A stretch of 64,000 bases of DNA. Source: an uncultured Planctomycetota bacterium. Its GTDB lineage: Bacteria; Planctomycetota; Planctomycetia; Gemmatales; Gemmataceae. The stretch spans positions 320,001 through 384,000 of the forward strand of contig CAWKHF010000005.1 in NCBI GenBank assembly GCA_963849325.1. Direction: 5' to 3'. A model generated the notes under the pieces. The model made no database searches, had not been told where the DNA came from, and was given only the letters and a program-made list of their open reading frames with translations. Position numbers and translations under genes: made by a program. Numbering within the stretch: the first letter of the stretch is position 1; the number at the start of each line of letters is the position of its first letter. Of this stretch, positions 3,436 to 40,831 are shown one piece after another.

Positions 3436-4071
3436 ATGGCTCCGTCTCCCCTCGCCGCCGTCGTCAAGGTCGGCGGCAGTCTGTTCGAGCTGCCCGATCT
3501 GGCGACGCGCTTGCGCGACTGGCTCGCGGCGGAGGGGAACAGCGGGACCGGCGTGCTCCTCATCCCCGGCGGCGGCCGCACGGCCGACGTCGTGCGCGAA
3601 CTCGATCGCCGTCACGGACTCGGCGAGGAGTCGTCGCACTGGCTCGCCCTTCGCGCCCTGTCGCTCAACGCTCATTTCCTGGCCGCGCTGCTGCCGTCGG
3701 CGTGCGTGGTCGAGGACGCGAGCGCTTGCAAGCAAGCCTGGAATAAAGGCATTATACCGATCCTCGAAGGTTATGAATTCGCGCGCGGCGATGAGGGCCG
3801 TGCCGGCTGTCTGCCGCACTGCTGGGCCGTCACCAGCGACGCCCTGGCCGCTCGCGTCGCCCTGGTCGTCCGTGCTCGTTCTCTCGTCCTGCTCAAGTCC
3901 ACGTCGATCCCGGCCGGTGTGGATTGGAGGGAGGCGGGACGGAGAGGGTTGGTCGATGACGTGTTCGCCGAGGTTCTGCGGCAGGCGCCGGCGGACTTGC
4001 GCGTACGCGCCGTCAACCTGCGGACGTGGGGAGCCCGAACCAGCGAGTTGTTCTCCGAGCCTGAAGCGTAA
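3436..4071 (+). CDS. mfnE: Amino-acid-kinase-family protein, MfnE-like
   Basis: VVKVGGSL, IPGGG.TADVVR, SHWLAL, LPHCWAVTSDALA, LVLLKS; operonic with mfnF. Confidence 0.75.
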   Translation: MAPSPLAAVVKVGGSLFELPDLATRLRDWLAAEGNSGTGVLLIPGGGRTADVVRELDRRHGLGEESSHWLALRALSLNAHFLAALLPSACVVEDASACKQAWNKGIIPILEGYEFARGDEGRAGCLPHCWAVTSDALAARVALVVRARSLVLLKSTSIPAGVDWREAGRRGLVDDVFAEVLRQAPADLRVRAVNLRTWGARTSELFSEPEA

Positions 4072-4108
4072 GCGAAGAGCATCTCTTCGCTTACGCTTCA
4101 GGCTCGGA
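4054..4108. repeat. REP-like palindrome family 2 (GAGCCTGAAGCGTAAGCGAAG...)
   Basis: 26-bp inverted repeat that contains the mfnE stop codon; copies at 7441-7498 and 51273-51321, relative at 56271-56328. Confidence 0.85.
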
Positions 4109-4135: not shown

Positions 4136-7129
4136 CTAGGAGCCTGGATGTCGGGCGTGCGGTGGCGTGGGCGTCGGCGTCGGTGTGGGCGTCGGTGTCG
4201 GGGTTGGAGTAGGTGTCGGCGTTGGCGTTGGTATCGGTGTGGGAGTGGGCGTCGGTGTTGGAGTGGGAGTGGGCGTCGGCGAGCCGGGATGTCTGGCGTG
4301 CGGCGGCGGCGTGGGCGTAGGAGTGGGCGTCGGTGTCGGAGTCGGAGTGGGCGTCGGTGTCGGAGTAGGAGTTGGTGTCGGAGTCGGTGTGGGCGTCGGA
4401 GTCGGAGTGGGCGTTGGGGTCGGTGTCGGAGTGGGCGTCGGTGTTGGGGTTGGCGTCGGCGTGCTCGTGGCTCCGGAGATGTTGGGGTCGGTGGCGCTGC
4501 CGCCGACTCCCGCCATCCCGTCCGAGCCGAGGATCCCTTCGCTGGCCGCTTGCCCATCGCTGCCGGCTTTTCCGGCACCGCCCACATTGCCGTTCGGCTC
4601 TCCGGGTCCCGCCGGTCCTCCCGCGCCCGCTTGGCCGCCGTGTCCCCCCGGTGCGGGAGTACCCAGGGCGGCGACGGCGCCTCCCTTGCCTCCCTGGCTG
4701 GCGGAGACCGTATTGTTGGCTACCGTGGTGCTGGACAGGCCGGCGACAAGGCCATTGGCGAGATAGAGTCCGCCGCCCTGGGCGGCTCCGCCAGTGCCGC
4801 CGTCGCCGCCGTTGCCATGAACCCCGGCTTGGCCGCCATCGCCGCCGTTGCCGCCCGAGCCGCCCTGGCCGCCGTTGCCGCCCGTTCTCAAATGGTAGCT
4901 GGTATTGCCGGCGCCGCCGCCGCCTCCTGTACCGCCTTTGCCGCCGTGGGCGCCGGCGCCTCCCATGCCGTCGACATAAGCGTTGCCATAAAGATCGGAA
5001 GTGCCGGCGTGCCCTCCCGCGCCGCCGTTGCCGCCCGTTGCCGAATTCTGTTCGACGCTGGAAGCGGTCAGATGGAGAGAGCCTCCACTCTGATACAGAC
5101 CGCCGCCCTGAGCGAGACCGCCACTGCCGCCGTTGGCGGCGTTTTCGCCATTGCCGCCATTGCCGCCGTTGCCGCCGTTGCCGCCGTCACCACCGTTGCC
5201 GCCGTCGCCGCCGATGCCGCTCTGACCCGAGTGCTCGAAGCCAGCTCCTCCCTGTCCTCCACCGACGCCGGCGCCGCCGTAGGCTCCGTAGCTCGAACCC
5301 GCGGCCGGTCCTCCACCGCCCGTGCCGCCGTAGCCCGCAAACCCGCCGTTCCTTCCGATTCCTCCATAGACGGCATTGAACGAGATTGTCGATTGCTGAA
5401 TGGTGACCGTGCTGGAAACGAGGTAAGCCCCTCCGCCTTCGGCCGTGCCTCCATTGCCTCCATCTTCCGGTTTGCCGCCCTCGCCGCCATCCCCGCCGTC
5501 TCCGCCATTTCCCGCTTTACCAGCCTTGCCGCCAATGCCACCATCACTCCCCACCCCGCCAGGGCCGCCAGGGCCGCCATGGCCGCCAGGACCACCTGCG
5601 GCCCCGAAACCTCCCGCTCCTCCTCCTCCTCCGAAACCTCCTCCGCCTGCCGCGGCGACATTTCCCGCCGTACCGCCGAGGGTGGACGATTGCAGCAGCA
5701 GGTTTGCGTTGCTGACGAACAATCCTCCTCCCTGAGCGGAACCGCCGTCGCCGGCCTTGCCGCCATCTCCGGCGTTGCCGCCGTCGCCGCCGTCGCCGCC
5801 CTGGCCGCCGCTGCCGCCGTCGCCGCCCTTCTTCCCCGGACTGAAATAGAGGGCGGGTTCTCCGATGTGGGTCGCACCATGTCCTCCTCCGCCGCCATTG
5901 CCGCCGGCGCCGCCCTGGCCCCCAAAATTGCCGCCTCCTCCACCCGCGCCGGCGCCGCCGCCGCCGCCGTAGCCCGAGGAGGCGCTGTTCCCTTCGATCG
6001 TCGAATTGTTCTGGATGGTGAGGGTGCCCTGACTGAGGTAGATGCCTCCGCCCTGGGCGTCGCCGCCATCGCCGCCATCGCCGCCATCGCCGCCATCGCC
6101 GCCGTCGCCGCCTTTGCCGCCCTCCTCTCCCGGCCGGCCATTCGATCCGGATACCCCTGTCTGGCCAGCTTGGCCGTCCTCACCAGGGGCGTTGTCGCCG
6201 CCTCGTCCGCCTCGGCCGCCATACATGCCACCGCCGCCGTAGCCGCCCTCACCGCCCTCGGCTTCGTTGTCCGAGATGGTACTTTGGATGAGGGTGAGGC
6301 TGCCGTTCTGGACATAAATGCCTCCGCCGGCGGCATCGCCGCCCTTGCCGGCATCGCCGCCCTTGCCGCCCTTGCCGCCGTCTCCTCCCTCCGTCCCCTT
6401 GCCGCCGTAGGTGAAATTGCGGTTCGTGGTATGCTCCACCGCTCCGCCGCCGCTGCCGCCCGCGCCGCCCGCGCCGCCCCAGCCGCCTTTGCCGCCATAA
6501 GCCTGGTTGTTCGACACCGTGCTTCCCTGGAGAACGAGCGTTCCGCCGCTGAGGAAGATGCCGCCGCCCTGACCGTCGCCTCCGGATAAACCATTCAAAC
6601 CGTTCTGCCCACTGCCGCCGGCGGCGCCGGCGACGGTTGCCGCTTGGCCGTTGGCTCCATTCCCTCCGTTGGCTCCGGCCGATCCCTGGGCAAAGCCCTG
6701 GGAAATGATCACATCGTCCAGCGTGACGTTGGCGCCCGCGCCGACATCGAGAATGCGAAACTTCGGCGTTCCCGCCGTGGTGCCGCGCTCGATGGTGGCG
6801 CCGTGGCCCTGGATGGTCAGGTTGGACGAGGTGATGACCGGCAGACCGTTGGCGCCGTCGGTGGTATTGTTCACCGTCGTCAGCTGGTAGGTGCCGTTGG
6901 TGGCCAGGACGATGGTGTCGGCCTGACCGTCTCCGTTGGCCGTTTGGATGGCGCTCGCCAGCCCGGCGACATCGCCGTTGCCGAGGGTGAACGTCGTCGG
7001 CGTCGTGCGGTCCTCGAGCGTTTCGAGCATGGGCCGAATGGAGCGACGCCGTTTCGCCGACCCGGCGCGGGTGTAGGGAGAAATGCCGTGCTTACCGAAC
7101 CATCGCTGCCGCAATTGCGTGAGCCACAT
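4136..7129 (-). CDS. Gly-rich secreted protein A (997 aa): LEDR leader, beta-solenoid coils with GGx tracts, PT linker, HARHPGS tail
   Basis: Start MWLTQ with GGAG SD, matching paralogs B and [16 protein letters not shown]; repeated GGG(I/L)(Y/F)..G.LT...ST...N.A units; ends (PT)[10 protein letters not shown](PT)[10 protein letters not shown]. Confidence 0.85.
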
Positions 7130-7139
7130 CGTTGGGATA

Positions 7140-7305
7140 CTCCGCGGGTAAGGAGGCGTGCCGGCCGCCTGCGGGATGGTATTGCCGGCGTCGATGTTTG
7201 CCGTAATCCGTCCGCTGAATCGACGTTGAAGACGACGGGAGCGAGGCGATTTCCCAGTCGTTCCAAGCCGGATCGCGCAATTTCTTCCGGGATGGCAGGG
7301 GCCAC
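7140..7305 (-). pseudogene. Degenerate 5' remnant of a protein D paralog
   Basis: [21 protein letters not shown] / [12 protein letters not shown] aligns with [22 protein letters not shown]...[17 protein letters not shown] similarity extends into the promoter. Confidence 0.75.
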
Positions 7306-7343
7306 CCTGTTGGGTAGGAGAATTCATGGCGACTTAGCGGGCC

Positions 7344-7372
7344 AGCCTAAAATGTCTAATTCGCCCTGTCAA
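7344..7372 (-). promoter_or_regulatory. Sigma70-like promoter for gene A
   Basis: TTGACA-N17-TAGGCT on minus strand, homologous to the promoter at 19176-19204. Confidence 0.7.
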
Positions 7373-7440
7373 GCAACCTGAAGAAGAATTAATTTTGGCG
7401 GGATGTCTCGTCCTGGACTCGCTGGCGCAAGACCGTCTCT

Positions 7441-7498
7441 CGGAGCCTGAAGCATAAGCGAAGGAATGTGCTGTCCTTCGCTTACGCTTCAGGCTCCG
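7441..7498. repeat. REP-like palindrome family 2
   Basis: Near-identical to 4054-4108, in the same position relative to the 3' end of paralog B. Confidence 0.85.
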
Positions 7499-7519
7499 TA
7501 AGTGGATCCCTGATTGGAA

Positions 7520-10500
7520 CTAGCCGCCTGGATGTCGGGCATGAGGCGGCGTGGGCGGCGGTGTTGGAGTCGGCGTGGGCGTCGGTGTTGGCGTGGGCGT
7601 TGGAGTCGGGGTTGGTGTCGGCGTGGGAGTGGGCGTCGGTGTCGGAGTGGGCGTGGGCGTGGGCGTCGGTGTCGGCGTGGGCGTCGGCGAGCCGGGATGT
7701 CGGGCGTGCGGCGGAGTCGGCGTGGGCGTCGGCGTAGGCGTTGGAGTGGGCGTGGGCGTCGGAGTGGGTATTGGTGTAGGTGTCGGGGTTGGAGTAGGCG
7801 TCGGTGTCGGCGTGGGCGTCGGCGTTGGAGTCGGTGTCGGCGTCGGCGTGGGTGTTGGAGTCGGTGTGGGCGTTGGTGTCGGCGTGGGCGTCGAGGTCGT
7901 GGCCCCGTAGATGTCGGGGGACGTGCCGCTCCCGTGTACGCCCGGCGTCCCGGCCGAGCTGGTGGAGCCTTCGCTGGCTTGCTGCCCATCGCTGCCCGTT
8001 TTTCCTGGACCGCCCGGGCTGCCGTTGTAGACACCGCCCCCTGCCGGTCCTCCGGCGCCCGGCTGGCCTCCATGCGCCGCCGCGAGGAGGAGGAGCCAGG
8101 GCGGAGACGATGCCGCCCGAGCCGCCCTTGCTGTCGGAGACGGTATTGTTGGCCACCGTGGTATTGGAGAGGCCGGCAACCAGTCCGTCGGCGAGATAGA
8201 GACCGCCGCCCTGGGCGGCACCGCCGGTACCTCCATCACCGCCCTTGCCCTGAGCACCACCCTGGCCGCCGTCGCCGCCGTTGCCGCCCGAACCAGCCTG
8301 GCCGCCGTTGCCGCCCGTCCTGCCGTAGCCGCCTCGTCCACCGTTGCCGCCGCTGCCGCCCAGGCGCCGGCCCCTCCGCCTCCGCCAAAAACGTAGGCAT
8401 TCCCTCCATCGGTGGCGTTCCCTCCCGGGCCGCCGTTGCCGCCCTGGGCCGAATTTTGCTCGACGGTGGAAGCGGTCAAGTTGAGGGAACCCCCACTCTG
8501 GTATAACCCGCCGCCCAGGGCCACTCCGCCACTGCCTCCCATGCCGGCATTTTGCCCACTACCGCCCTTGCCGCCGTTGCCTCCATTGCCGCCGTCCCGC
8601 AGGCGGCCACGCCCCCTTGCCCGCCTCGATAGCTGCCCGCATATCCGCCATTGCCTCCCCCTCCACCGACGCCTCCAATGGCTCCCAGAGGCGCCGTCCG
8701 AGGAGGCCTGGGCCTGACCGCCCCTGCCTCCATAGCCGGCGGCCCCACCGCCCCCACCCGCCCCGCTATTGGCCTCATTGAACGAGAGGATCGATTGTTC
8801 AATGGTGACGGTGCTGGAAACCAGATAAGCTCCTCCGCCTTCGGCGTCGCCTCCATTGCCGCCATCTTCCGGCTTGCCTCCATCGCCTCCATCTCCACCA
8901 TCCCCGCCATCTCCGCCTTTGCCCCCTTTGCCCCCGAAGCCGCCAATCGTCCCCGCTCCCCCATTGCCGCCTGTTCGCCCTGCTCCGCCTGCACCGCCCT
9001 GGCTACCCGAATCCACCGACACCCCCTCCGCCCGCATATCCGCCTCTGCCTCCCTGGGCCATGTTTCCTTCGTAGGCGGTATCCGCCAATGCGTGGAAGA
9101 CTCCAGAAGAAAGCGATCCGTTGGTGACGAATAAGCCGCCTCCCTGAGCGGCGCCCGCATCGCCGGCCTTTCCGCCATCTCCTGCCTTTCCTCCCGCGCC
9201 GCCCTCTCCACCATTGCCGCCACTGCCGCCATCGCCGCCCTTCTTTCCCGGACTGACCCACCAGTAAGGCGGGATTCCCAGCATTCGGGTTGGTTGCGCC
9301 ATTTCCTCCTCCCCCTCCATCACCCCCAGCCCCGCCATTGCCGCCCGGGCCGCCGAAGTCGCCGCCTGCACCACCTCCACCGCCGCCGCCATAGCCGGAG
9401 TAGGCGGTATTCCCTTCGATAGTCGAATGGTCCTGGATGAGGAGTGTGCCCTGATGGAGGTAGATGCCTCCCCCTGTGCGTCGCCGCCGTCGGCACCGTT
9501 GCCGCCATCTCCGCCATCCCCGGCGTCGCCGCCCTTGCCTCCTTCTTCACCGGGCCGACCATTCGCTCCGGATACTCCGGTCGCACCATTCATGCCGCTT
9601 TCGCCGCGAGCGCCATCGCCCCCTCGTCCTCCCACGCCGCCAATGCCCCCTGGGCCGCCATAGCCGCCGTCTCCGCCCTCCGCTTGGTTGCCGTTGATCG
9701 TGCTTTGGATAAGGGTGAGGCTTCCGTTTTGAACATAGATGCCACCGCCGGCCGCGTCGCCGCCCTTGCCGGCATCGCCTCCCCGGCCTCCGTTGCCGCC
9801 GGCTCCTCCCTCGGTCCCATTACCGCCGTAGAAGCCGAAGTTGCTGGTATGATAAGCAGCCCCGCCTCCCCTGCCGCCGTTGCCTCCGGCTCCGCCGCCG
9901 CCGCCGATGCCGCCGAGGGCCATATTGAATTCCAGCGTCGCTCCCTGGAGAACGAGCGTTCCGCCGCTGAGGAAAATGCCACCGCCCTGACCATCGCCGC
10001 CGTCCGACCCGTTCTTGCCGTCGCTGCCGTTTCCGCCAGCACCGCCGGGAGCGGTCGCTGCCTGACCGTCGGCGCCGATGGCTCCGTTGGCTCCCGCCGA
10101 TCCTTTGGCTAGACCGTGGGAGATGATTACGTCCTCCAGCGTGACGTTGGCGCCGGCGCCGACATCGAGGATGCGAAACGCCGGCGTCCCCGCCGTGGTG
10201 CCGCGCTCGAGGGTGGCGCCGTTGCCCTGGATGGTCAGGTTGGACGACGTGATGACCGGCAGACCGTTGGCGCCGTCGGTGGTATTGTTCACCGTCGTCA
10301 GCTGGTAGGTGCCGTTGGTGGCCAGGACGATAGTGTCGGCCTGGCCGTCTCCGTTGGCCGTTTGGATGGCGCTGGCCAGCCCGGCGACATCGCCGTTGCC
10401 GAGGGTGAACGTCGTCGGCGTCGTGCGGTCCTCAAGCGCTTCGAGCATGGGACGAACGGAGCGACGCCGTTTGGCTGCCCCGATGCGGGTGTGCGGAGAA

Positions 10501-10550
10501 ACGCTGTGCTTGCCAAACCATCGCTGTCGCAATTGCGTGAGCCACATCAT
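7520..10550 (-). CDS. Gly-rich secreted protein B (paralog of A; several frameshifts, assembly error or pseudogene)
   Basis: [13 protein letters not shown]...LEALEDR; collinear with A across ORF fragments; ends PPHARHPGG*. Confidence 0.75.
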
Positions 10551-10818
10551 TGGGAACTCCCGGACAACGGTATGATCGATGCTCGTTCTCTCCTCATCCC
10601 AATCCCTCTCCCCCGAAACGGGAGAGAGGAATTGGGGAACAGACCCTCCCTGTGAAGAAGTACGAGCCGGTAAGCCTGATTCTTACGGCAAAAAAGACAG
10701 CCTGCAACATTTTTTTTGGATTTTCCGAACTGCGAGCGCGGGCGTGCGAGAAGCGGCCCGCGAGCGGATGTGCTCGCGGGCCGGCTGGCGACATTCGCCG
10801 AGCGAAGAGGACGTCCCT

Positions 10819-13799
<2,981 letters not shown>

Positions 13800-13854
13800 G
13801 GGAGGACTCCGGGTCGAAGGGTTAGATCCGTTCACCTATCGCAACGGATTCTCG

Positions 13855-13922
13855 CCCTGAGCGGGGGCGTCAACCCCCTGAGAATGGCGGCACTCAGGGG
13901 GCTGACGCCCCCCCGCTCAGGG
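13855..13922. repeat. REP-like palindrome family 1
   Basis: CCCTGAGCGGGGGCGTCAACCCCCTGAG...CTCAGGGGGCTGACGCCCCCCCGCTCAGGG. Confidence 0.8.
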
Positions 13923-14007
13923 TGCGAAACCACGGCTAACCCAAAGTACGAAGCGAAAGAATGGAACCTGTCGCGCGACGGGAATTTTTTTCCGAACTGC
14001 GTCGCGG

Positions 14008-16173
14008 CTAAACGAGGGCCGCGAACAAGGCGCCCAGGTGGGGTTCGTAATTCCGCCAGCGTCCGGCCGAGCGCGTGTACAGCGGTTGACGTACCTGCAT
14101 GACGCTGGCGGTGCGCACCGGCTGCTTGCCCTCGTGGAAAGCCAGGCAGGCCGGCTCCCACTCCAGGCCGCACCACGCCACCAACCGCCGCGCCACGCTC
14201 TCCAGGTCGGCCACCGTCTCCTCGTAATCGATCTCCAGCAGCGAAACCGGCAACACCGTCCGCCAATGCGCCATCAAGCGCTGATATTCTCGGAAGCGCG
14301 CGGCGATGTGCTTGGGATCGTTGGCCCAGCGAATGCTGCGGAAGTTGGTCATCCAGCACGACACGGCCACGTCGCGCAGGTCGCGGCGGCAGTGGATGAA
14401 CTTCGCTCGGGGAAACAGCAAGGACAGCAGGCCAAGGTACAGATAGTTGTCTGGCATCTTGTCCACGACGCGCGCGGCGGTGGGATTCAGGCTGCGCAGT
14501 TGGCCCAAATGCTTCTGCGCCAGGCGGCGGGCCGCGTCGCGCTGGAGTCCCGGCAGCGCCTCGAAGGCGCTTGCTTCCGTTGCGTCCGCTCCCAGGGCCA
14601 GGAAATCCTCGCGGGCCTGGCGCAGCTCGCCGGCGCCGAAGACCTGCGAATGACCGGCGAGAATTTGCTCGGTCAACGTCGTGCCCGAGCGCGGCAAACC
14701 GACGATGAACACCGGCCGCTCCGTCTCCAGGCCGAAGCCGCGCACGCGCTCGAAGAACGCTGGCGTGAAGACGGTCATCATGTTGTCGATAAAACGAGTA
14801 AATTCATCGGGATCGTAGCTCTGTTTATTCTCGACGCGCAGCGCCAGCTCCAGGGCGTTGGCCTGTTGCAGATGGGCGGCGGCCTGTTCGTAGTTGCCGT
14901 CGGCGTCGCACACCTGGGCCAGGCCGAAGAGCAGACCGGCGCGGCCGGCGTCGTTCAGCTCCGGCTCGGCCAGGCGCTGCTCGATGACCGTGCGGTCGGC
15001 GGCCGGCAGCTTGCCGCGCAGCAGCGTCGCCAACTGCGACAGGGCGGCGGCGTGGCGCGGATAGTCGCGCAGCACCTCTCGATACGCCTGCTCCGAAGCC
15101 GCGAAGTCGCCCAGTTCCTGAAGCACCAGGCCGAGGTTGCAGCGCGCGGCCGGGAAGTCCGGCTGCAAACGCAGTGCGGTCTGATAGCGCTCCAGCGCCT
15201 CGGTGAAATAGCCTTGTTCGTGCCGGACCCAGCCGAGGCGATTGTGCGCCGCCGCGTAATCGGCATCGAGCCGCAAGGCCAGCTCGTAGCGAACGAGGGC
15301 TTCTTCGTAGTTCTCTTGCTCCTCGAAGACGCTGGCCAGGTAGCAGTGCAGGCGCGGCGAGTTCGGCTCCAGTTGCAGCGCCTGTTCGTACCACGAGACG
15401 GCCTCCGACAGTTTGCCTTCCTCTTGCAAGGCCTGGCCCATGTTGCCGTAGGCCAGGGCCAGGTCGGGATTGAGGTGCATGGCCTCGGCGTAGCAGGCGC
15501 GGGCCTCGGCCAACTGACCGCGCTCGCGCAGCACGTTGCCGAGGTTGTTGTGCGCCTCGGCGGTGTTCGGCCGCAGGCGAACGGCTTCACGGCAATGGTG
15601 CAGGGCGTCGTCCAGCTCTTGTTGTTCCAGCAGGATTTGTCCGAGATTGCTGTGAGCGGCCGCGAAGTTGGGATCGCACTGCACGGCCTGGCGAAAGTGC
15701 GCGATGGCCTGTTGGCGATCGCCGAGAAGACGGTAGGTGTCGCCCAGGTTGTTATGGGCCTCGGCGAAGTTGGGCTTGAGGCGCAGGGCGGCCTGAAACT
15801 GAGCGATGGCGGCCTCGCCCTTGTCCTGGTCGCGCAGGGCCAGGCCGAGATTGATGTGGGCTTCGGCGAGGCTGGGTTGCAACCGTAGGGCGGTGCGGCC
15901 GCAGCCGACGGCTCGGTCCAACTCGCCCAGGGCGCGGTACGCCTCGGCCAGGTTACTGTGAAAGGCGGCGGCGCCGGGCTTGTGGGCGATGGCCTGGCCG
16001 ATCAACTCCACGGCCGCCGCATGGTCGCCCTGCTGATGACGCAGCACGCCCAGCAAGTGCAGGGCATCGGCGTTCCGCGGTTCCTGGGCCAACAGTTTCT
16101 GATAGAGCTGAGCGGCCTCTCTCAGCTGTCCCGATTGATGCTTTTCGATGGCGGCCGTCAACGTGTCTTGCAT
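14008..16173 (-). CDS. TPR-repeat sulfotransferase (Sulfotransfer_3-like), 721 aa
   Basis: Start MQDTL with AAGGA SD; about a dozen TPRs (AEAHNNLG...); PAPS motif PVFIVGLPRSGTTLTEQIL, DKMPDNY, FPRAKFIHCRRD, VRTAS.MQVRQPLY. Confidence 0.92.
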   Translation of the reverse strand: MQDTLTAAIEKHQSGQLREAAQLYQKLLAQEPRNADALHLLGVLRHQQGDHAAAVELIGQAIAHKPGAAAFHSNLAEAYRALGELDRAVGCGRTALRLQPSLAEAHINLGLALRDQDKGEAAIAQFQAALRLKPNFAEAHNNLGDTYRLLGDRQQAIAHFRQAVQCDPNFAAAHSNLGQILLEQQELDDALHHCREAVRLRPNTAEAHNNLGNVLRERGQLAEARACYAEAMHLNPDLALAYGNMGQALQEEGKLSEAVSWYEQALQLEPNSPRLHCYLASVFEEQENYEEALVRYELALRLDADYAAAHNRLGWVRHEQGYFTEALERYQTALRLQPDFPAARCNLGLVLQELGDFAASEQAYREVLRDYPRHAAALSQLATLLRGKLPAADRTVIEQRLAEPELNDAGRAGLLFGLAQVCDADGNYEQAAAHLQQANALELALRVENKQSYDPDEFTRFIDNMMTVFTPAFFERVRGFGLETERPVFIVGLPRSGTTLTEQILAGHSQVFGAGELRQAREDFLALGADATEASAFEALPGLQRDAARRLAQKHLGQLRSLNPTAARVVDKMPDNYLYLGLLSLLFPRAKFIHCRRDLRDVAVSCWMTNFRSIRWANDPKHIAARFREYQRLMAHWRTVLPVSLLEIDYEETVADLESVARRLVAWCGLEWEPACLAFHEGKQPVRTASVMQVRQPLYTRSAGRWRNYEPHLGALFAALV

Positions 16174-16222
16174 GGGCGAAAAATCCTTTCCGTTGCGTCG
16201 TCGAGCCAAGAGGGAAGACCGT

Positions 16223-19132
16223 CTAGGAGCCTGGATGTCTGGCGTGCGGCGGCGTCGGTGTCGGGTTCGGTGTAGGCGTCGGGTTCGGTGTGGGCGTCGG
16301 GTTTGGTGTGGGCGTCGGGTTTGGCGAGCCGGGATGTCGGTTGTGCGGCGGCGTCGGCGTGGGATTTGGAGTCGGCGTCGGCGTTGGTGTCGGCGTTGGT
16401 GTCGGCGTCGGCGTCGGCGTTGGTGTCGGCGTCGGCGTCGGCGTGACGTTGACAGTGAAGGCGCCAGGGTGCCGGTGGCGGTCGCGTTGCCGGCCAGGTC
16501 GGTCGGCGGATTGGAGACGAGGTTGATCGTGTAGGTGCCGGTCGGCGCATTGTCCCAGGAGCCGCCGGGCGGCGTGATCTGATAGGTGACGGTGATGGTT
16601 TGGGCGTCGCCCTGTCCGTCCTGCGCTCCCGACAGCACGGTGTTGATCGCCGTGGCGGTGATGGGTGAACCGCTGGGCGGCTGCACCTGGACGACAGCGC
16701 CGCTGATGCTGCCGCCGTTGACCATCACGGGATCGGAATAAGCGACCGTGAAGGTATATGGATTTAAGGTATCCTCGTTGGCGTTGGTGACGTTGGCGGC
16801 GTTGAGGTTGGCCGTGGGCGGCGTGGTGTCCGAGCCAACGGCCCCGAAGACCGTGTCGCCGGCGCTGGTGCCGTCCGACGCCGGGCCGGCCCTCAAGCCC
16901 GAACTGCCCAAAGCGCCGTCGTTGCCCTCCGCGCCGTCTTTGCCGTCGGCACCTTCGGGATCGCCGGGGCCGCCCTGGCCTGCTAATCCTCCGTTGCCGG
17001 CGTCGCCGCCCGCGCCGCCCGCGCCAGCGCGCCGACACTGCCTGCCTTGCCCCCTTGTGCGGTGCCGCTCAAGGTAGTGCCGTTCAGAGAGGCGGAAAAT
17101 CCGTTGGCGACGTAGATGTCTCCACCTTGACCGTCGCCGCCGTTGCCAGCGTGGCCGGCGTTGCCGCCGTTACCGCCCGGCCCCCCGGAGCCGCCGTCGC
17201 CCCCGTTGCCGCCATGCCCGCCAGCGGCGATGTGGGCGCCGTTGGGTCCGTAGACACCGCCGCCGCCGCCGTAGCCGCCGAGGTTGCCACCGCCACCCTT
17301 GCCACCCTCGCCGCCTGGACCGGCCGCGCCGCCGTTGCCGCCGTTGGAGCCGAGCGCGGAATCCTTGGCGAAATCACCGCGGACGATAGTGAGGCTGCCA
17401 CCGGCCTGGTAAATGCCGCCGCCCAGGCCATCGCCGCCTTTGCCGCCATCGCCGGGGTCGCCGCCGTCGCCGCCCTTACCGCCTTGTGCTCCGTTGCCGG
17501 CGTCGCCGCCCGCGCCGGCGTCGCCACCCTTGCCGGCCGAGTTGACGTAGCCGTCACCACCGTTGCCGCCGATTCCGCCGTAGCCGCCAGCGCCACCTTG
17601 GCCGCCCGCGCCACCTTGGCCGCCCGCGCCACCTTGGCCGCCAGCGCCGCCCGTGATTCCCTGACCGCCCATTGCGGTGTTGGAAGTGAACGTCGTGGCG
17701 ATAAGGGTAGCCGTGCCGTCCTCCAGGTAAAATCCGCCGCCCTTGGCGTCGCCGCCGTCGCCACCGTCGCCACCCTTGCCGCCATCGCCGCCGTCGCCGC
17801 CGTCGCCGCCCTCACCCCCGTTGCCGGCGTCGCCGCCCACACCCGCGGCGATGCCGGGGATGCCGATGGCGCCGCCGCCGGGGCCGCCGTTGCCGGCGTT
17901 GAAAGCACCGCCTCCATCGCCGCCGTCGCCGCCATCATCGCCACTAATGCCCGCCCCACCGTCACCAGCCGTCGCCGCGTTGCTCGTGACGGCGGTGGAC
18001 ACAACCGTCAACTTTCCGGAGGCCAAGTACAGTCCTCCGCCCTCCGCGTCTCCGCCGTTGCCGCCCTTGCCGCCATCGCCGCCGCCCACGGCATCGCCGC
18101 CTTTGCCGCCCGCGCCGCCCATTCCTCCTTTGCCACCCGCGCCGCCTTTGTAGCCTGCGGGGCTGGACGCAATTCCTAAGGTTCCGCCACCCGCGCCGCC
18201 GGCGCCGCCCGAGCCGCCCGCGCCCCCCGCGAATCCGCGGTCCTGGGACACCAACACACCGGAGGCGCTCGAGAGGTGGTGGCCGGGTCCGCCGCCGTCG
18301 CCACCCGCGCCCCCCGGGCCGCGTTGTTCAGGACGGTCGTGTTGATAAGGGTCAATTGCCCGGACGCTACATAGATGCCGCCGCCTTTGGCGTCGCCGCC
18401 ATCGCCGCCATCGCCGCCAGCACCGTTCTTCAGCGAAGCCGCCTGGGGACCGTCCTGGCCGTCCCCGCCATCGCCGCCATCCCCTCCCTCTCCTCCGGGA
18501 GCCGTGGCATCTTTGCCTACGGCTCCCTTCTGTCCCGTCAGGTGCGCGCTCGGGGTGGGAGCATAATGGGTAAGTTGATTGCCCCCCGCCCCTCCTGCCC
18601 CCCCTTTACCGCCGCTAACGCTGTTGCCACGGACGGTGACGTTGGTCAGGGTCAGACTTCCCGAAGCCAGGTAAATGCCGCCGCCCTCGGCCTCGCCGCC
18701 CTTACCGCCGGCGCCGCCGTTTTGACCGCTCACCCCCGCCGCGCCGGCCGACCCCGTGGCTCCCACCACGTTGCCGCCCGTGATGGTTAGGTTCTGAATC
18801 CGTACCGTCAGATTGCTGTTGCCGATGATCTCGAAGATGCGATTGGTCGCCTTCGATCCGCCGGTGAGGATGGTGGTGTTCTCGGCCGCGCCGACGAGGC
18901 TGAGCGTGCGGGCCGTGTCGGGCTGGTCCTGAATCAACAGTTCCACGCCGGCGCTGAGCGTATAAGTGCCGGCCGCGAGGTTGATGGTATTGCTGGCGTC
19001 GCTGTTGCCGTCGGCCGCCTGGATGGCGGACTGCAAACCGCTCGCCGAGTTGACGTCGAAGATCGCGGGAGCGAGACGATCTTCCAGTTGTTCCAGACGC
19101 AGGAAGACGCGCGATTTCTCCCGAGATGACAT
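16223..19132 (-). CDS. Gly-rich secreted protein D with C-terminal Ig-like domain, PT linker and HARHPGS tail (frameshifted)
   Basis: [12 protein letters not shown] leader; GGGIY/GGx repeats; DTTPPTA...FTVAYSD...TYTINL..TDLAGN domain; ends PPHNRHPGS-(PNPTPT)[10 protein letters not shown]. Confidence 0.75.
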
Positions 19133-19175
19133 GCGGCCACCGCATTGTGGGTGAGAATGGGATATTTAGCGGATC

Positions 19176-19204
19176 ACTGTAAAACTCATAATTCGGTCTG
19201 TCAA
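19176..19204 (-). promoter_or_regulatory. Sigma70-like promoter for gene D and the sulfotransferase
   Basis: TTGACA-N17-TACAGT with an AT-rich tract upstream. Confidence 0.75.
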
Positions 19205-19250
19205 GTACCTAACGAATTATTAATTTTTTGTGGGAGGCACTACCCAAATA

Positions 19251-19316
19251 GGCGAGCGGGGGGCGTAAGCCCCCTATTGACGGCGACAAACAGAGGGCTT
19301 ACGCCCCCCGCTCGCC
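19251..19316. repeat. REP-like palindrome family 1
   Basis: GGCGAGCGGGGGGCGTAAGCCC...GGGCTTACGCCCCCCGCTCGCC. Confidence 0.8.
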
Positions 19317-19446
19317 AAAAAGTTACCGCTTCTGAAGAGCAGATTGGATGCCAAAACAAGAGCCTCACACAAATTCGCAAAGAACGCCAGGAATTGAAAA
19401 AAAAGACGGGATGAAAGGATCGTAGGATCGTGTCACCGTAAAACCA

Positions 19447-19493
19447 ATCTCCCGTTTGGCATCGGCTGGGCGAGCCGGCACCAAACGGGAGAT
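19447..19493 (-). terminator. Probable intrinsic terminator of gene E
   Basis: ATCTCCCGTTTGG...CCAAACGGGAGAT stem ~20 bp after the stop, followed by TGGTTTT on the minus strand. Confidence 0.55.
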
Positions 19494-19514
19494 GTGGGGG
19501 GACACCACTTATGG

Positions 19515-22500
19515 TTACAGGGCCGCTATAAACGACTGATAGGCGTGCAACTCGGTGGCGAAGAACTGGAAGTTGGCACTCAACATACTATTGGCGGCGA
19601 AAAGGGCGTCCGCCATCGCCTGATTGGCCTGGTTCTGTTCCAACTGCACCAGTTGCGTCAGTAGGCTGCCGACAGACTGGAGGAGATCCTGCTGTACGGC
19701 CACATTCAGAGACTGATAATCTTGCAGCGCGTCCATGACGGCGACGAGATTGCCAGTCAACAAGCCTTGCGTCAACGAGACGAGGGTCTGAAACTCCTGC
19801 TGAATCAGTTGCGGGAGGGTCGGTGTCGGGGTCGGAGTGGGCGTTGGTGTCGGCGTCGGCGTCGGCGTTGGCGTCGGCGTCGGGGTGGGCGTGGGGACAG
19901 GCGTGGGACTGATGATGATGTTGGCGGTGACCAGACTGTCGCTGGGTCCGCCGGGGGTCGGCAGGGTCAGAACGGCGTTGGTGCCGGCGGCGTTTTTGAT
20001 CGTGGCGCCGTTGAGGGCCAGCGGCACCAACGGAGTGTAGTCCAGCGCCTGGCCGAACGAGGTGTCGCCGGGCTTGACCGTGTAGGTGAAGATCAAGGTG
20101 TTGCTGCCGCTGCCGCTGCTGTAGTTGGCCATCTGGCCATTGGCCAAGGCCAGCGTCGGTGTGCCCGCGCCTGCGACAAAGACCTTCTCGCTGAAGGTCA
20201 CGTCGATGACGATCGTGTCCCCTGGCCCGTAGGTGCCCGAGGCGGTGGTCGTGCCCACGCCGGTCACGGCCGGCGTGGTGGCGTCGATGATGATGCCGGT
20301 GGTCTTGAGCGTATCGCTGGCCGCGCCGGGGGCCGGCAGCGACGCGAGGTTGGCCGCCATGCCGCCAGCGTTCGCGATCATGCCGCTCAGCCCGCCGGCG
20401 GTGTAGTCGAGGTTGGCGCCGTTGGTGGTGTCGCCAGCCTGCGTCGTGTAGGTGAAGACCAGCGTATTGGTGCCGGTGCCACTGAGGTAGCTGGCCGTCT
20501 TGCCGTCGCTGAGCGTCAAGGTCGGCACGCCGGTGACATTGACGTTCTCGCTGAAGGCCACGTCGATGGTGACCGTCGCCCAGTCCCGAGTGCCGGCGGC
20601 GGTGGTCGTGCTCACGCCCATCACCGTTGGCGTGGTGGCGTCGATGATGATACCCTTCGGTTCCAAACGTATCGCTGCCCGAACCGGGCATCGGCAGCGT
20701 CAGAGTAGCCGCCGTGCCGGCCGCGCTCTTGATCGTGCCGCCGCTCAGCGAATTGATCGCCGCATAGTCGATATTGGCGCCGGAGGTGGTGTCGCCGGAC
20801 GGCACCGCGTAGGTGAAGGTCAGCGTGTTGGTACCGCTGCCGCTGCTGTAGTTGGCCGTGCCGCCGTCGCTCAGCGCCAGCGTCGGCGTGCCGGTGACGG
20901 TGACGTTCTCGCTGAACGTGACCGTGATGGCGATCGGCGCCCCCGTTCCGAGGGTGCCGGCGGCGGTGGTCGTGCTCACGCCCGTCACCGTCGGCGTGGT
21001 GGCGTCGATGATGATGTTGTCGTCCTGGCTCAGCGAATTCGCCGCGCCGGCGCACGGCAGCGTCAGAGTGGCTGCCACGCCGCCCACATTCTTGATCGTG
21101 CCGTTCAGCGCCGTGGCCGACGCCTCATCGAGATTGGCGCCGTTGGTGGTGTCGCCATTGGCCACCGTGTAGTTGAACACCAGCGTGTTCGTGCCAGTGC
21201 CGCTGACGTAGGTGGCCGTTTTGCCGTTGCTCAGGGTCAGGGTCGGCGTCCCGGTGACATTGACCGCCTCGCTGAAGACCACATCGACGGCGATCGTGGA
21301 CCCGCCCGCATAGGCGCCGTCGACGGTAGTCGAGTTGACCTTGGTCACCGTCGGCGTGGTGGCGTCGATGATGATGCCGGTGGTCTTGAGCGTATCGCTG
21401 GCCGCGCCGGGGGTCGGCAGCGACGCGAGGTTGGCCGCCACGCCGCCGGCGTTCGCGATGGTGCCGCCACTGAGACTCAGCCCGCCCGCGCTGTAGTCGA
21501 GGGCGGCGCCGCTGGTGGTGTCGCCGCCGGCAACCGTGTAGGTGAAGGTCAGGGTCTGGCCGCCGCTGCCGCTGGTGTAGCTGGCCCTGCTGCCGTCGCT
21601 GAGCGTCAAGGTCGGCGTGCCGGTGACATTGACGTTCTCGCTGAAGGTGACGGTGATGGCAACCGGCTGAGTGGGACCGTAAGTGCCGGCGGCGGTGGTC
21701 GTGCTCACACCCGTCACCGTCGGCGTGGTGGCGTCGATGACGATGCCCGTGGTGCCAAACGTATCGCTGCCCGAACCGGGCGTCGGCAGGCTCGCCAAGG
21801 TCGAGGGCATTGTCCGCCGAGTCGAAGATCGAGCCGCCGTTGAGGCTCAGCCCGCCCGCGCGGTAATCGAGGTTGGCGCCGTTAGTGGTGTCGCCGCTGC
21901 CCACCGTGTAGGTGAAGACCAGCGTGCTCGTGCCGCTGCCACTGGAATAGTTGGCCTTTTGGCCGTCGCTCAACGTCAGATAGGGTGTGCCGCCGGTGGT
22001 ATCGACCGTGACCGGCTTGCTGAGGTTCAGGTCGATCGTAACCTGGCCGGTCCCGAGGGCGCCGGCGGAGTTGGTCGTGGAAACCGTCGTGATGGTCGGG
22101 CGACGCCGTCGATCGTGATGTTGTCCGTGTAGAGAATATCGTTGGCCGAGGCCGGTCCCGGTAAGGACGACGCCGGCAGGGTGAGGTTGGCCGCCAAACC
22201 GTCCGAGACATCGTTGATGGTGCCGCTGTTGAGGACGAGCGCGCCGGTGCCCGTGTAGTCGAGCGGGCTTTGCTCCTTTATTCCCCGAAATGGCAATGTG
22301 GTGAAGCCAGGCAGCTTCCCAATTTTGCTATCTTGCCAGTTTCAGGAATAAAGGAGCAAAGCCAGTCGAGCGGAGTGGCGGTGTCGCCGGCGGGCACGAC
22401 GAGGTTGAATTGCAGAGCACTGGTGCCGCTGCCGCCGACGTAGGCGGCCTTCTGAGTCAGGCTATCGTTGAGGGCCAGCTGAAGGTCGCATTGCCTCCCG

Positions 22501-23044
22501 CCGTCACCGTCTGGTTGCTCGGTTGCGTCGTGATGGCCGGTACGTTGCCGTCAACCGTGATGTTGTCGGCGGCGAGATAGTCAAAATTGGCCGTGGCGGG
22601 AGTCTGTAAGGTGAGGGTGGCCGCGGCCGCGTCGGAACGATCGTTGATGCTGCCCCCGGATAAGCTGAGCGCGGTGGTGTCGAGGTAATCGAGCGGACTG
22701 GCGCTATCCGGAGTGGGGACGATAAACGTGAATTGCAGCGAGCTGGTGCCGCTGCCTCCGCTGTACTGGGCCAGCGTGGTTGCGCTATGGTTCAGCGCCA
22801 GAGTCGGCGTGCCGGTGACGGTGACCGCCTGGCTGAAGTCCACGTTGATGGTGGCCGTCTGCCCAGCGTTGAGGGTGCTGTTGGGGGTCAGCGTCGTGGT
22901 CACGTCCGTCACGGTGGCGTTGAGCAGCGTGCGGTCCTCTAGGACTTCGACGTAGAGCATGCCGCGTCGGGGATCTCTCACGACGCGCGTCCGTCGAGCC
23001 TTCGAGACCTGTTTTAACCACGTCCATATCGGCGACCGAAACAT
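19515..23044 (-). pseudogene. Ig-like repeat surface protein E, disrupted by a MITE, an internal deletion and frameshifts
   Basis: VEVLEDRTLL leader; tandem repeats TPTVTGV...VTFSENV.VTGTPTL.LSDG..A.YSSGSGT.TL.FTYTV..GDT...LDY; PT linker then helical tail. Confidence 0.75.
22266..22363. mobile_element. 98-bp MITE with 19-bp TIRs and 9-bp target duplication (IS5/IS903-like ends)
   Basis: GGCTTTGCTCCTTTATTCC ... GGAATAAAGGAGCAAAGCC flanked by AGTCGAGCG at 22257-22265 and 22364-22372; removal restores ATPLDYTGT. Confidence 0.9.
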
Positions 23045-23242
23045 GCGGGAGCACTCCATAGTCAAAGGGAATGAATGTTGGCGGGGACGCACATCGTTGT
23101 GTTGTCGCCGGTACGAGGGCGGCGGGTGGGAGAGAAAGGTATCGCAGGGGCGAACCGACCTCGCCGACCCATGCCCTCCGCCGGCCGTGCAAGGCGGGAA
23201 GGTTGCGGGACAGTCCGAACCGGCCACGCGGTTAAGGTGCTG

Positions 23243-23271
23243 AATCTTGCGCCGAAGCCGGCACTTGTCAA
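23243..23271 (-). promoter_or_regulatory. Possible sigma70-like promoter for gene E
   Basis: TTGACA-N17-AAGATT on minus strand. Confidence 0.5.
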
Positions 23272-23398
23272 GCGGCCTCGGCGAACGAGAAGATAAATGG
23301 GCAAGTGACGGTGCCGAAAAGGACGGCGGTGCGGCCAGCAACGGCTTCACGAAGGGATTCCGGGATGTGCCCTACGGAGATTCGCGCAGCGAAAGATA

Positions 23399-23455
23399 CC
23401 GAGCCGCGACCGTTAGAGAGCGGGGGAGCACCACTCCCTAACGGTCGCGGCTCGG
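23399..23455. repeat. REP-like palindrome (CCGAGCCGCGACCGTTAG...)
   Basis: 18-bp perfect arms extending imperfectly, ~25 bp after the stop of gene F. Confidence 0.75.
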
Positions 23456-23479
23456 ACAGCGGCTTGCGCTACGCGGGAC

Positions 23480-34316: not shown

Positions 34317-37300
34317 ATGGCGGTCCGGATCGACAATCAGGCCGAGCCAATTCCCGGCTACAAGCTCATCGAGCGCCTGGGCGGCGGCGGCTTCGGCGAG
34401 GTCTGGAAGTGCGAGGCGCCCGGCGGCCTGCACAAGGCCATCAAGTTCGTCTTCGGCGATCTCGGCGCCGCCGGCGAGGACGGCCATCGTGCCGAGCAGG
34501 AACTGAAGGCCCTCAGCCGCGTCAAGACCGTCCGTCATCCATACATCCTGTCGCTGGAACGCTACGACATCGTCGATGGTCAGCTCATGATCGTCATGGA
34601 GCTGGCCGACCGCAACCTGTGGGACCGCTTCAAGGAGTGCCGGGCCCGCGGACTGCCCGGCATCCCCCGCGACGAGCTGCTCGGCTACATGGAGGAGACG
34701 GCCGAGGCGCTCGATCTGATGAACAGCCAGTATCAGCTGCAACACCTGGACATCAAGCCGCAGAACCTGTTCCTGGTTTATCAACACGTCAAGGTGGCCG
34801 ATTTTGGCCTGGTCAAGGATCTGGAGGGCATGCAGGCGTCGGTGACGGGTGGCGTCACGCCGGTGTACGCCGCGCCCGAGACGTTCGACGGCTGGGTCAG
34901 CCGCTTTTGCGATCAGTACAGCCTGGCCATCGTCTATCAGGAATTGTTGACGGGCCAACGGCCGTTCAACGGCAGCAACATACGTCAGCTGATCTTGCAG
35001 CACTTGCAGGCGCCGCCCAACGTCAGCTCGCTGCCGCCGGGCGAGCAGCCGGCCATCGCCCGCGCCCTGTCCAAGACGCCGGGCGACCGCTTCCCGACCT
35101 GTCACGAACTGGTCGAGGCGCTCAAGAACGGCGGGGCCGGCGGTGGCGCCGCTTCCGAGACGGCGCCCGCGGTGGAAGCGATCGCCCCCTCGCAGGTGAG
35201 TGGCCTGGTCGCCTCCGTGGGAAGACTCACCGACAACCGCACGGACAGCGCGGAAGAGTTCACCGATGACACCGCGGTGACAGCGAGCCTCCGTCAACTC
35301 CGCCGCCCCGACTCCAACCCGTGTACCACGGACGCTCTCCGCGGCGAAGGTGCCGCCCCGTCGGGCACGGCCGCCGAGCCGCGCAAGGCCCCGCCGGAGG
35401 TCAACGGCAACGGCGTCCTCTTTCCCGCCCTGGTCCTCGGTCTAGGCCAGCTCGGTCTGAGCGTGGTGCAGCGGCTACGCCAGCGTTTGCACACGCGCTT
35501 CGGCGGCCTGGAATGCCTGCCACACCTGCGGTTGCTGGTCCTCGATACCGACCCGGAAGTGGTCCGCACCGCCGGCCGCGCCGCCGCCGCCGCCCGTCTG
35601 TCCGAGGCCGAAGTATTGCTGGCCCCGCTGAATCGTCCCAGCCACTACCTCAAACCGCGCGACGGCCGACCCGACATCGACAGCTGGCTCAATCCGCGCA
35701 TGCTCTACCGCATCCCGCGTTCGCAGGTGACCACCGGCGTCCGCGCCCTCGGCCGGCTCGCCTTCTGCGACAATTATCGTCTCATCACCCTTCGCTTGCA
35801 GGCCGAGCTGAACGCCTGCATGGACCCCGACGCCCTGGCCTCCGCCGTCCATCAGACGGGGCTGGGCCTGCGCACCAACCGCGTCCGCGTCTACGTCGTC
35901 ACCAGCCTGGCCGGCGGCAGCGGCGGCGGCATGTTCCTCGATCTGGCCTACACCCTCCGCGCCCTGCTCAAGCAGGCTGGCTACGAGCAGCCCGACGTGG
36001 TGGGCGTGTTCCTGCTGCCCGGCGTCGATCGCAACCGCACGCGCGTGCTGACGCTGGGCAACGCCTGCGCCGCCCTGCGCGAGTTGAGCCACTTCGCCCG
36101 CCCCGGTACGACGTTCACCGCCCGCTATCACCAACGCGAGGCGCCCGTGCAGGACAGCGAACCGCCGTTCAGTCGCTGCGTCATGCTGCCGTTGCCGGAG
36201 GAGACCGACGAGGCGTCCACGCGCGAGCTGGTCGAGCTGACCGGGCTGTTCTTGTCGCGCGATTTGTGTTCGCCGCTGGGCCGAGTGGCCGACCTGGGCC
36301 GTGGCGGCGTGACCGGCCTGCCGTGGGATTCGCGCGGCCTGTTCTATCAGACGTTCGGCCTGTATCCGCTGTCCTGGCCGCGCCACGCCCTGCTTCGCAC
36401 CGTGCGCGCCGCCTATGTCAGCGCCTGATCCAGCGCTGGATGAGCAAGGATAGCAAGCCGCTCCGCGAGTCGGTGCGGGCCTGGATGCAGGAGCAGTGGA
36501 CGCAGCAGGAGTTCGGCTCCAGCATCCTGATGGAACGACTCAACGAGGCCGGCCGTCAGGCGCTCGGCCGCGACCCGGACGACGTCTTCCGCGGCCTGAC
36601 CGAGCCGCTGCTGGAACGCCATGCCACCGTTCTGAATCCGCCTTCGAAGCGGGGCGGCGCCGCCGTCGAACCGCATTTGCCTCCTGAAGAGATCGCCGAA
36701 GTCCTCGAGCAGTTCGAGCAACTCCTGGGCAAGCCGCAGGACGATGGCCTGTCCGAGACGCCGGCACGATTGGTCGTCGCCCTGCGCGAAGCGGCCGACC
36801 GCCTGGTCCACGAGTGGGGCCAGAAGTTGGCCGAACTGCCGGTGCGCCTGATTGAGGAGCCGGAGTTTCGCCTGGCCGGCGCCGAGGAGATCGTCCGGCA
36901 GATGGTGGCGTCGCTCGAGCAGGCCTTGCAGCATCACGAGCCGTTGTCCAAGGAGTTGACCAACCGCGCCGTCGAGGCGTACACCCGGCTGCAAGCGCTG
37001 GCCGTGCCGTCCGCGGAGAAGGCCGGCGCCTCCGGCGTCTTCCGCAAGGTCGGTTCTCGCGGCGGCCATCGCCCGATGGCCGTCGAGGCGGTCGAGTTGC
37101 TGCGCAGCTATCCCAAGTCGCTGTACCAGAGCCTGGTGCTGCGCCAGGCCGGCAATGTTTTGCTGACGCTGCGCGGTCACCTGGCCGACGAGATGCGCGA
37201 GATCAACTCCTGCCGCGTCCGTCTCGGCGAGCTGTTGCGCAAGCTGGAGGAGCCGGCCGACTCCGCCGTGTCGTCGGCGGCGCAGGCGGCGATCGGCAAA

Positions 37301-39321: not shown

Positions 39322-39343
39322 GGACTCACGCGGAGAACGTGTC

Positions 39344-40777: not shown

Positions 40778-40831
40778 CGTTGATCGGAGGAGCGGTTTCT
40801 CATCACCGATTCGCCCCTTGCGAGGAAAGCC

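Follow-up and report, generated by a model that had tools for sequence, protein, structure and literature searches.

Six large genes (A to F), all on the minus strand, lie at 4.1-32.3 kb of a 64,000-nucleotide stretch of contig CAWKHF010000005.1 (positions 320,001 to 384,000 of the forward strand; assembly GCA_963849325.1) from an uncultured Planctomycetota bacterium of the Gemmataceae. Five of them (A, B, C, D, and F) end in a tail in which runs of Pro-Thr (PT) dipeptides are closed by a short conserved peptide, P-P-H-[A/T/N]-R-H-P-G-[S/G]. It is this tail, and above all its nonapeptide motif, that we analyze here; an earlier note on the same DNA had taken the peptide for a candidate new C-terminal sorting or processing signal of planctomycete surface proteins. 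Positions are those of the whole stretch, which we call the window.

A six-frame scan of the window, together with codon print-outs, gives nine full copies of the motif on the minus strand, all in the same orientation and in frame with the PT runs, which bears out the nine copies in five genes of the earlier note, coordinates included. The terminal starts given there (4136, 7520, 10819, 16223, and 23480) mark the lower end of each stop codon, and the motif coordinates given here are those of the nine motif codons. At the DNA level, the pattern CCNCAYNNNMGNCAYCCNGG for the core of the motif occurs nine times in the window, where 100 shuffles give 0.01 matches on average. In A, B, C, and D, the tail has the layout (PT)n-motif-(PT)n-motif-stop. 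Gene A has a terminal PPHARHPGS at 4139-4165 (CCA GGC TCC type), followed by TAG, and an internal PPHARHPGS at 4280-4306 (CCC GGC TCG type, with AGA for Arg). The terminal copy of B is PPHARHPGG (7523-7549, then TAG) and its internal copy PPHARHPGS (7688-7714), while C ends in PPHTRHPGS (10822-10848, then TAA) after an internal PPHARHPGS (10987-11013). In D, the terminal PPHARHPGS (16226-16252, then TAG) and the internal PPHNRHPGS (16325-16351) both lie inside a 99-base tandem unit. Gene F is laid out as a folded part, a PT run bordered by a partial copy only (SNHPGT, 23636-23653, at the border between domain and PT run), then PT run, motif, and stop; its single full copy, TPHARHPGS (23486-23512), is followed by one extra Ser and TGA.

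The PT run before every copy comprises 7 to 29 dipeptides, so that the motif does always follow or interrupt a Pro-Thr linker, as previously claimed. The tails consist of P, T, H, A, R, G, S, N, and I only and, read directly from the sequence, contain no hydrophobic stretch, membrane helix, or basic tail, again as stated before. The reading frames of all five carriers close zero to one residue past a motif copy, although their stop codons differ (TAG in A, B, and D, TAA in C, and TGA in F). Two further candidates were rejected. RHRHPG at 16463-16474, considered as a tenth copy, is out of frame and sits just upstream of a break in the frame of D. An antisense gene start (AGGAGCC TGG ATG opposite the terminal copies) is not found at the internal copies, and its frame would encode only Arg/Gly/Val repeats.

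Each of the six genes opens with a charged leader ending in LE-x-LEDR, which reads LETLEDR in A, LEALEDR in B and C, LEQLEDR in D, VEVLEDR in E, and LERLEDR in F. These leaders (at 7129, 10550, 13799, 19132, 23044, and 32170-32314) are basic, have no evident hydrophobic core, and end in LE-x-LEDR-(T/L)-x-P/L; a literature search found, for the terms used, no paper on a leader of this LEDR type. Genes A, B, C, and D form one protein family, in which the leader is followed by a β-helix-like, Gly-rich body. Gene A (4136..7129, minus strand, as are all six), whose tail is (PT)25-motif-(PT)19-motif, is alone among the tail genes in having an uninterrupted reading frame; its open reading frame (ORF) is open to 7327, and the Met at 7129 is the likely start. 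Its paralogues B (7520..10550) and C (10819..13799) have tails like that of A and one frame break each, near 8919-9007 and near 12825-12837, respectively, and they show 57-74% identity to A per aligned piece (tblastn with A). In D (16223..19132), the body is followed by one immunoglobulin (Ig)-like domain and the tail, and the gene has at least three frame breaks, one of them at ~16460, just ahead of the PT run. A tblastn search with A finds no match of at least 45% identity in the body of D, only in its tail. No Pfam family is found in A to D and no NCBIfam family at E ≤ 0.01; as regards the tails, the NCBIfam scan covered the ORFs that carry them in A, C, D, and F, but not the 3' piece of B (7523-9232). 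The named database relatives of A are "choice-of-anchor Q domain-containing protein" entries of Gemmataceae or Isosphaerales.

Gene F (23480..32314) has a different body, in which the LEDR-type leader is followed by CARDB and PPC domains, an RHS/YD-repeat core, DUF7619, an FN3-like end, and the tail, the whole being spread over at least four reading frames. The body matches RHS_repeat (E = 2.9e-86) and YD_repeat_2x (E = 5e-71) in Pfam/NCBIfam, but with a score of 186 against the NCBIfam RHS_core, for which the cut-off is 2000, F is not an equivalog of that family. It nevertheless has the YD repeats and the core of RHS proteins: the PxxxxDPxGL motif, which we take to be the end of the RHS core of F, is readable as ...NNPIGLIDPTGL in one frame upstream of the tail ORF. 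Downstream of ...NNPIGLIDPTGL (23480-25230, minus strand), a Gly-rich stretch, a frame break, DUF7619, the FN3-like end, and the PT tail follow one another, with no recognized toxin domain. A DPLGL near the tail was considered as an RHS DPxGL cleavage site and rejected, as it looks like the end of the FN3-like domain and the RHS end is further upstream. The earlier note counted three architectures; the five carriers stand, but since A, B, C, and D are one family, there are two unrelated bodies plus one domain variant.

Gene E (19515..23044), the only one of the six without the motif, provides a contrast. It has the LEDR-type leader, Ig-like repeats built on a 360-base unit, and the sixth PT linker of the window (19818-19907), which leads to a helical end domain. 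The repeats (20077-21978, minus strand) amount to 5.2 tandem copies of the unit, with 71% matches, and the helical end domain, of ~100 residues, has no family match.

Evidence for exchange of the tail and for constraint on the motif

Relatives of A and D show what lies elsewhere at the place of the tail. P0121, the best homologue of A, shares 64% identity with it over the first 383 residues (residues 2-383 of A); residues 891-995 of P0121 are 61% identical to the Ig-like domain of D, and more Ig-like domains follow, with neither PT run nor motif. A second protein (P0144), 47% identical to the N terminus of D, ends in Ig-type domains without a tail. The PT run starts directly after ...DPNISG-x-T in A to C and directly after the last strand of the Ig-like domain in D. 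Since P0121 and P0144 continue with Ig-like domains at that point, the tail occupies the site of the Ig-like domain arrays of its relatives.

The codons of the motif fall into types. The CCC GGC TCG type is found in the internal copies of A, B, and D and in the terminal copy of C, and the CCA GGC TCC type in the terminal copies of A and D and in the internal copy of C; the terminal copy of B has CCA, and that of F has CCT GGC TCC. Motif type thus tracks position rather than gene, which implies that the two-motif unit was copied whole. The terminal copies of D and A differ at only 2 of 27 bases. Such near-identity of the tail across distant or unrelated bodies (A, D, and F) requires transfer or gene conversion of the tail, and on this evidence its sharing between distant bodies is recent. 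In the partial copy of F, CAT CCC GGC and the next CCG ACG match the internal motif type, while there is no likeness upstream of CAT, so that the first motif of F seems to contain a recombination junction. Beyond the stop codon there is no homology: the DNA downstream of A, B, C, D, and F is unalike, save for a palindrome shared by A and B. This palindrome, with 21-base arms GAGCCTGAAGCGTAAGCGAAG inverted around a 7-12-base loop, sits after the stops of A (4057-4105) and B (7443-7496), with a third copy at 51.3 kb (51273-51321); there are six arm matches against zero expected, and it looks like a terminator or a repetitive extragenic palindromic (REP)-type repeat.

The differences between the copies, which exchange sequence, are unevenly distributed. 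In the six core codons (P2, H3, R5, H6, P7, and G8), the nine copies require a minimum of five synonymous and no non-synonymous changes (P = 0.0018-0.0032, with an expected synonymous share of random changes of ~28-32%), whereas of the seven changes in codons 1, 4, and 9, two are synonymous and five non-synonymous (Fisher P = 0.028 versus the core). Within the carriers there is no ascertainment bias, because all ten slots are accounted for. Synonymous divergence in the core therefore exceeds non-synonymous divergence, which favors conservation at the peptide level, as the earlier note had proposed, and supports a constraint on P-H-x-R-H-P-G as a peptide.

This pattern weighs against what we regard as the foremost alternative, possible but doubtful, according to which the 27 bases of the core interrupt the PT-coding DNA neutrally, have been duplicated with the tail and homogenized by gene conversion, and encode a functionless peptide. 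Under such passive copying, ~70% of random changes would alter the peptide, yet all five core changes are silent and the three remaining codons, in the same copies, are not spared. Moreover, the motif is kept where the non-coding DNA past the stops of the paralogues A, B, and C is no longer recognizably alike, and in-phase copies differ from one another at 6-12 of 36 bases in the PT codons beside it. On the other side stand the restriction of the motif to five genes within 20 kb and its absence from the collections searched, the two motif types that follow position across genes, the cassette that F has seemingly received with a junction in its first motif, and the 99-base tandem duplication that holds both motifs of D. 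Rare codons invariant in nine copies are likewise expected of recent copying: the second His is CAT in 9/9, a codon that makes up 24% of the His codons in the window's reference genes, and all nine Arg codons are CGA or AGA, a pair that accounts for 6.7% of Arg codons in the same genes. Invariant rare codons imply that the copies also share nucleotide ancestry, and they qualify the synonymous variation described previously, which is present as listed but touches neither the second His, invariably CAT, nor Arg beyond CGA and AGA.

Codon usage in the tails is unusual as a whole. The G+C content at third codon positions (GC3, as the sum of G and C shares) is ~0.54-0.71 in the five tails (4139-4459, 7523-7888, 10822-11133, 16226-16441, and 23486-23635), compared with 0.74 in the body of A and 0.84-0.92 in a set of eight reference genes. 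For Thr, ACC is used 11 times in 180 in the tails, against 53% elsewhere, and ACA, ACT, and CCA are common.

Distribution outside the window

We searched one genome each of 185,579 species at the DNA level for the exact pattern [PT][PT][PT]PH-x-RHPG, with x limited to codons RMN. The 81 matches are single, come from unrelated taxa, and are about as many as expected from composition (a rough estimate). None of the 81 has at least three PT dipeptides in a row alongside, and none combines at least 100 open upstream codons with a stop within three codons. Three chance matches, from a Brevibacterium, a Nostocoides, and a Lachnospiraceae bin, have nearly identical flanks, which may reflect either a non-coding gene that is conserved or a contaminant present in all three assemblies.

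At the protein level, a 65-residue double-tail query, run against 5.8 billion protein clusters in a word-indexed search, gave 440 hits, and the motif is in none of the best 120, all of which are PT-rich proteins. Among the best 120 of 303 homologues of gene A, 81 have the LEDR-type leader (from Gemmataceae, Isosphaerales, and others), but none has the motif or at least six PT in a row. The profile of the nine copies, run against 1.84 billion cluster representatives, returned one hit, to the PT part only, and a 110-residue tail searched in the ESM Atlas gave a best score of 0.80, which is noise level. An exact look-up of ten window ORFs in protein collections found 0/10, some of which the choice of start codon could explain, while the CysS of the window is 88-91% identical to several proteins there, some of them named Gemmataceae, which places the organism among the planctomycetes of this family. 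Since the protein collections are partly blind to these tails, the DNA scan of species genomes carries most weight.

Neither pattern nor profile search thus finds the motif in PT context in other genomes. As far as public data show, it is confined to this locus, and within the searched collections it appears private to the locus while the LEDR-type leader is widespread. Consequently, a tag of planctomycete surface proteins at large, as proposed in the earlier note, finds no backing, and co-occurrence with the leader holds in one direction only: all five carriers have it, but the leader-bearing homologues of A listed do not have the motif. That the peptide is undescribed does hold. Full-text literature has no match for HARHPG, PHARHP, HTRHPG, or HNRHPG, and matches for RHPGS are unrelated; literature on sorting signals, linkers, and leaders of Planctomycetes or Gemmata gave nothing relevant; and neither Pfam nor NCBIfam has a family for the tail-bearing parts scanned. 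In PMC8567305, nothing on such tails was found.

This distribution makes it unlikely that the motif is a true C-terminal sorting or processing tag, served by a dedicated peptidase, transpeptidase, or anchoring factor and needing no membrane helix. Known tags are common to many proteins and genera along with their enzyme, whereas this one is in PT context in 0/81 species-genome matches, missed by the profile search, and carried by 0/120 listed homologues although 81 have the leader. A strictly C-terminal signal would have no need of the internal copy, which leads into another PT run, and no candidate enzyme lies beside the carriers among the window ORFs scanned. Such a tag would, in turn, account for the fact that all five frames end zero to one residue after a copy despite differing stops and unalike downstream DNA, as well as for the peptide-level constraint on the core and for the leader typical of exported proteins in five of five carriers. 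The window also contains an S41 C-terminal processing peptidase with PDZ domains (46151-47602), which would fit such a tag, though it lies 22 kb off. This S41/PDZ peptidase, considered as a reader of the motif, was rejected because the sequences do not fit. Given that the motif has not spread to other proteins or genomes, has an internal copy and no helix, and has no enzyme found beside it, a dedicated sorting system is unlikely, and one confined to a single lineage and five adjacent genes is possible but unlikely.

Frame breaks and neighboring genes

Single-base frame breaks split B, C, D, E, and F, at 8919-9007, 12825-12837, ~16460, 16900-18260, 19515-23350, 24700-25230, and 27665-27686. The conserved 4-HFC-P synthase gene (32985-34078) is split likewise, with Pfam positions 1-129 in the ORF at 33041-34078 and positions 130-227 in the ORF at 32985-33539, while CysS, the S41 peptidase, and other genes of the window are unbroken. 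Because a conserved gene is also affected, the breaks probably stem from indels of the assembly, of a kind that persists where DNA is repetitive and GC-rich, rather than from decay of the tail-gene cluster alone; the alternative is that they are real, as pseudogenes or phase variation.

G+C content varies between 0.54 and 0.70 along the window in 2-kb steps. Between C and D lies a gene for a 721-residue protein with TPR and Sulfotransfer_3 domains (14008..16173, minus strand), whose ATG is 50 bases past the stop of D. Since this 50-base gap contains no hairpin, the two genes are probably co-transcribed, judging from their arrangement. The protein is an intriguing neighbor of D, whose targets might be the surface proteins or a glycan of the envelope. 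Further along, one plus-strand ORF (34215-36428) combines two domains, a Ser/Thr protein kinase at residues 49-292 and Tubulin_2 ("Tubulin like") at residues 406-728. The region 38000-42300 has a lower G+C content (0.54-0.59) and includes an ORF resembling an extracytoplasmic function (ECF) sigma factor (38080-38889) and two adjacent paralogues (39344-40777 and 40780-42279) with weak matches to the C-terminal part of squalene-hopene cyclase.

Interpretation and comparison with known systems

The explanation that we favor, tentatively and short of calling it probable, is a lineage-private tail cassette of two Pro-Thr spacers, each closed by PPH(A/T/N)RHPG(S/G), which is kept at the peptide level and presents a His/Arg knob on a stalk. 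The cassette would have spread among five neighboring genes for LEDR-led secreted proteins by duplication and by recombination or gene conversion, with the junction in F falling inside the first motif. The stalk formed by the PT runs would be extended and probably glycosylated, and the short cationic His/Arg/Pro/Gly knot that interrupts and caps it could be a small element that binds a metal ion or an anionic polymer of the envelope. The knot may thus provide non-covalent attachment or spacing, rather than a signal for a dedicated sorting enzyme.

Several points weigh against this explanation. The selection signal amounts to five events only, among copies that exchange sequence, and these copies are not old, their identity being in part plain shared descent (CAT in 9/9, CGA or AGA in 9/9). 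Four of the five carriers are in broken frames here, and if the breaks are real, their tails are untranslated. The pattern of the DNA scan is strict, and the window's own copies are not returned by it either; the protein-level negatives are weak, as the collections return CysS but not the window's own tail-bearing proteins; and confinement to the locus is judged from the window and public collections, not from the rest of this organism's own genome. Lastly, the binding role is inferred from composition and from analogies with the PT boxes of cellulases and the His-Pro-rich region of histidine-rich glycoprotein.

Two alternatives remain to be placed. It is improbable, in our judgment, that PPHxRHPGS is a very young tag in one Gemmataceae lineage, where a lineage-specific factor would read it and trim or tether LEDR-led proteins without a helix; this factor would be a peptidase, a transpeptidase, or a metal-dependent envelope receptor, and we would be looking, again improbably, at a signal at its birth that spreads by cassette transfer. 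An element acting at the nucleotide level, either a rare-codon translational pause (CGA/AGA then CAT) or a recombination site for tail exchange, is very unlikely: MGA CAT is indeed invariant in 9/9 despite the strong genomic preference for CGC/CGG and CAC, and the tails are rich in rare codons ending in A or T, but there is variation, such as a peptide constraint predicts, at the third position in three codons and at the first in the Arg codon, there is no palindrome or structure, the RNA of the tail of A (the only tail folded) is less stable than all 100 shuffles (z = +4.3) and Rfam has no match in the whole window, so that no RNA element is indicated, site-specific exchange between copies that are all direct repeats would delete genes, and there is no recombinase gene among the ORFs scanned.

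If the cautious reading, that of a lineage-private cassette, holds, the locus is a case of low-complexity tails passed between the surface-protein genes of one bacterium, in which cassette copying, the replacement of Ig-domain arrays, and codon scrambling can be seen together. It also carries a warning, since even a repeated peptide that catches the eye can belong to a single genome. The motif would gain in weight if metal or envelope polymers were found to bind to the peptide, or if the peptide turned out to undergo processing. To our knowledge, almost nothing has been established about how planctomycetes hold proteins on their surface, and a short, mutable tag together with a recognizable leader would give an experimental handle.

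When compared with known C-terminal signals, the tail resembles LPXTG, PEP-CTERM, GlyGly-CTERM, and PGF-CTERM in being a short conserved C-terminal peptide of exported proteins, often after a Thr/Pro-rich spacer. It differs from these sortase, exosortase, rhombosortase, and archaeosortase signals in having no hydrophobic helix or basic tail, an extra internal copy, and no spread across genomes. Specifically, the tails end zero to one residue after the motif, unlike an LPXTG signal, they have neither the helix nor the Arg cluster of PEP-CTERM/exosortase and GlyGly-CTERM/rhombosortase substrates, those of A, C, D, and F have no NCBIfam match to any of these signals, and no sorting-enzyme family was found among the window ORFs scanned with Pfam. 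A general C-terminal sorting tag is found on many unlinked proteins in several genomes, which is not the case here in public collections, the organism's own genome being covered by the window only. The C-terminal domain of Type IX secretion is a folded β-sandwich of about 70-100 residues, but no folded domain follows the PT run, and Pfam and NCBIfam give no match to one. Type I secretion substrates of the RTX class have GGxGxDxUx nonapeptide repeats (HemolysinCabind) and an uncleaved C-terminal signal, with no N-terminal leader; in contrast, A to D have no Pfam family and all carriers have an N-terminal LEDR-type leader. A 2A-like skipping peptide (NPGP) was rejected, as the motif reads HPGS or HPGT.

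Three systems come closer. The choice-of-anchor Q family of Gemmataceae and Isosphaerales has the leader and the N-terminal β-helix-like, Gly-rich region in common with A to D, but the 120 relatives listed end in Ig-like or other domains, where A to D end in a PT tail and motif. In vertebrate histidine-rich glycoprotein, GHHPH repeats between Pro-rich regions bind Zn2+ and sulfated glycans, and its His-Pro region resembles the tail in placing short His/Pro/Gly units in a Pro-rich, glycosylated, extended sequence; there is no homology, the proteins here have two units each, and the likeness is one of analogy only. The PT box linkers of secreted enzymes, such as the cellulases of Cellulomonas fimi, are expected to be extended, possibly glycosylated spacers that join two folded domains. 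Like them, the tails have tandem Pro-Thr dipeptides (7 to 29) in long runs after a folded extracellular domain, encoded by scrambled synonymous codons. However, they do not join two folded domains: the second run leads only to the nonapeptide and the stop, so that the tail ends the protein, with no domain after it and with the run interrupted and capped by the conserved nonapeptide. The feature is real and undescribed, and what is new in it is a private capping motif on a Pro-Thr spacer of a known type.

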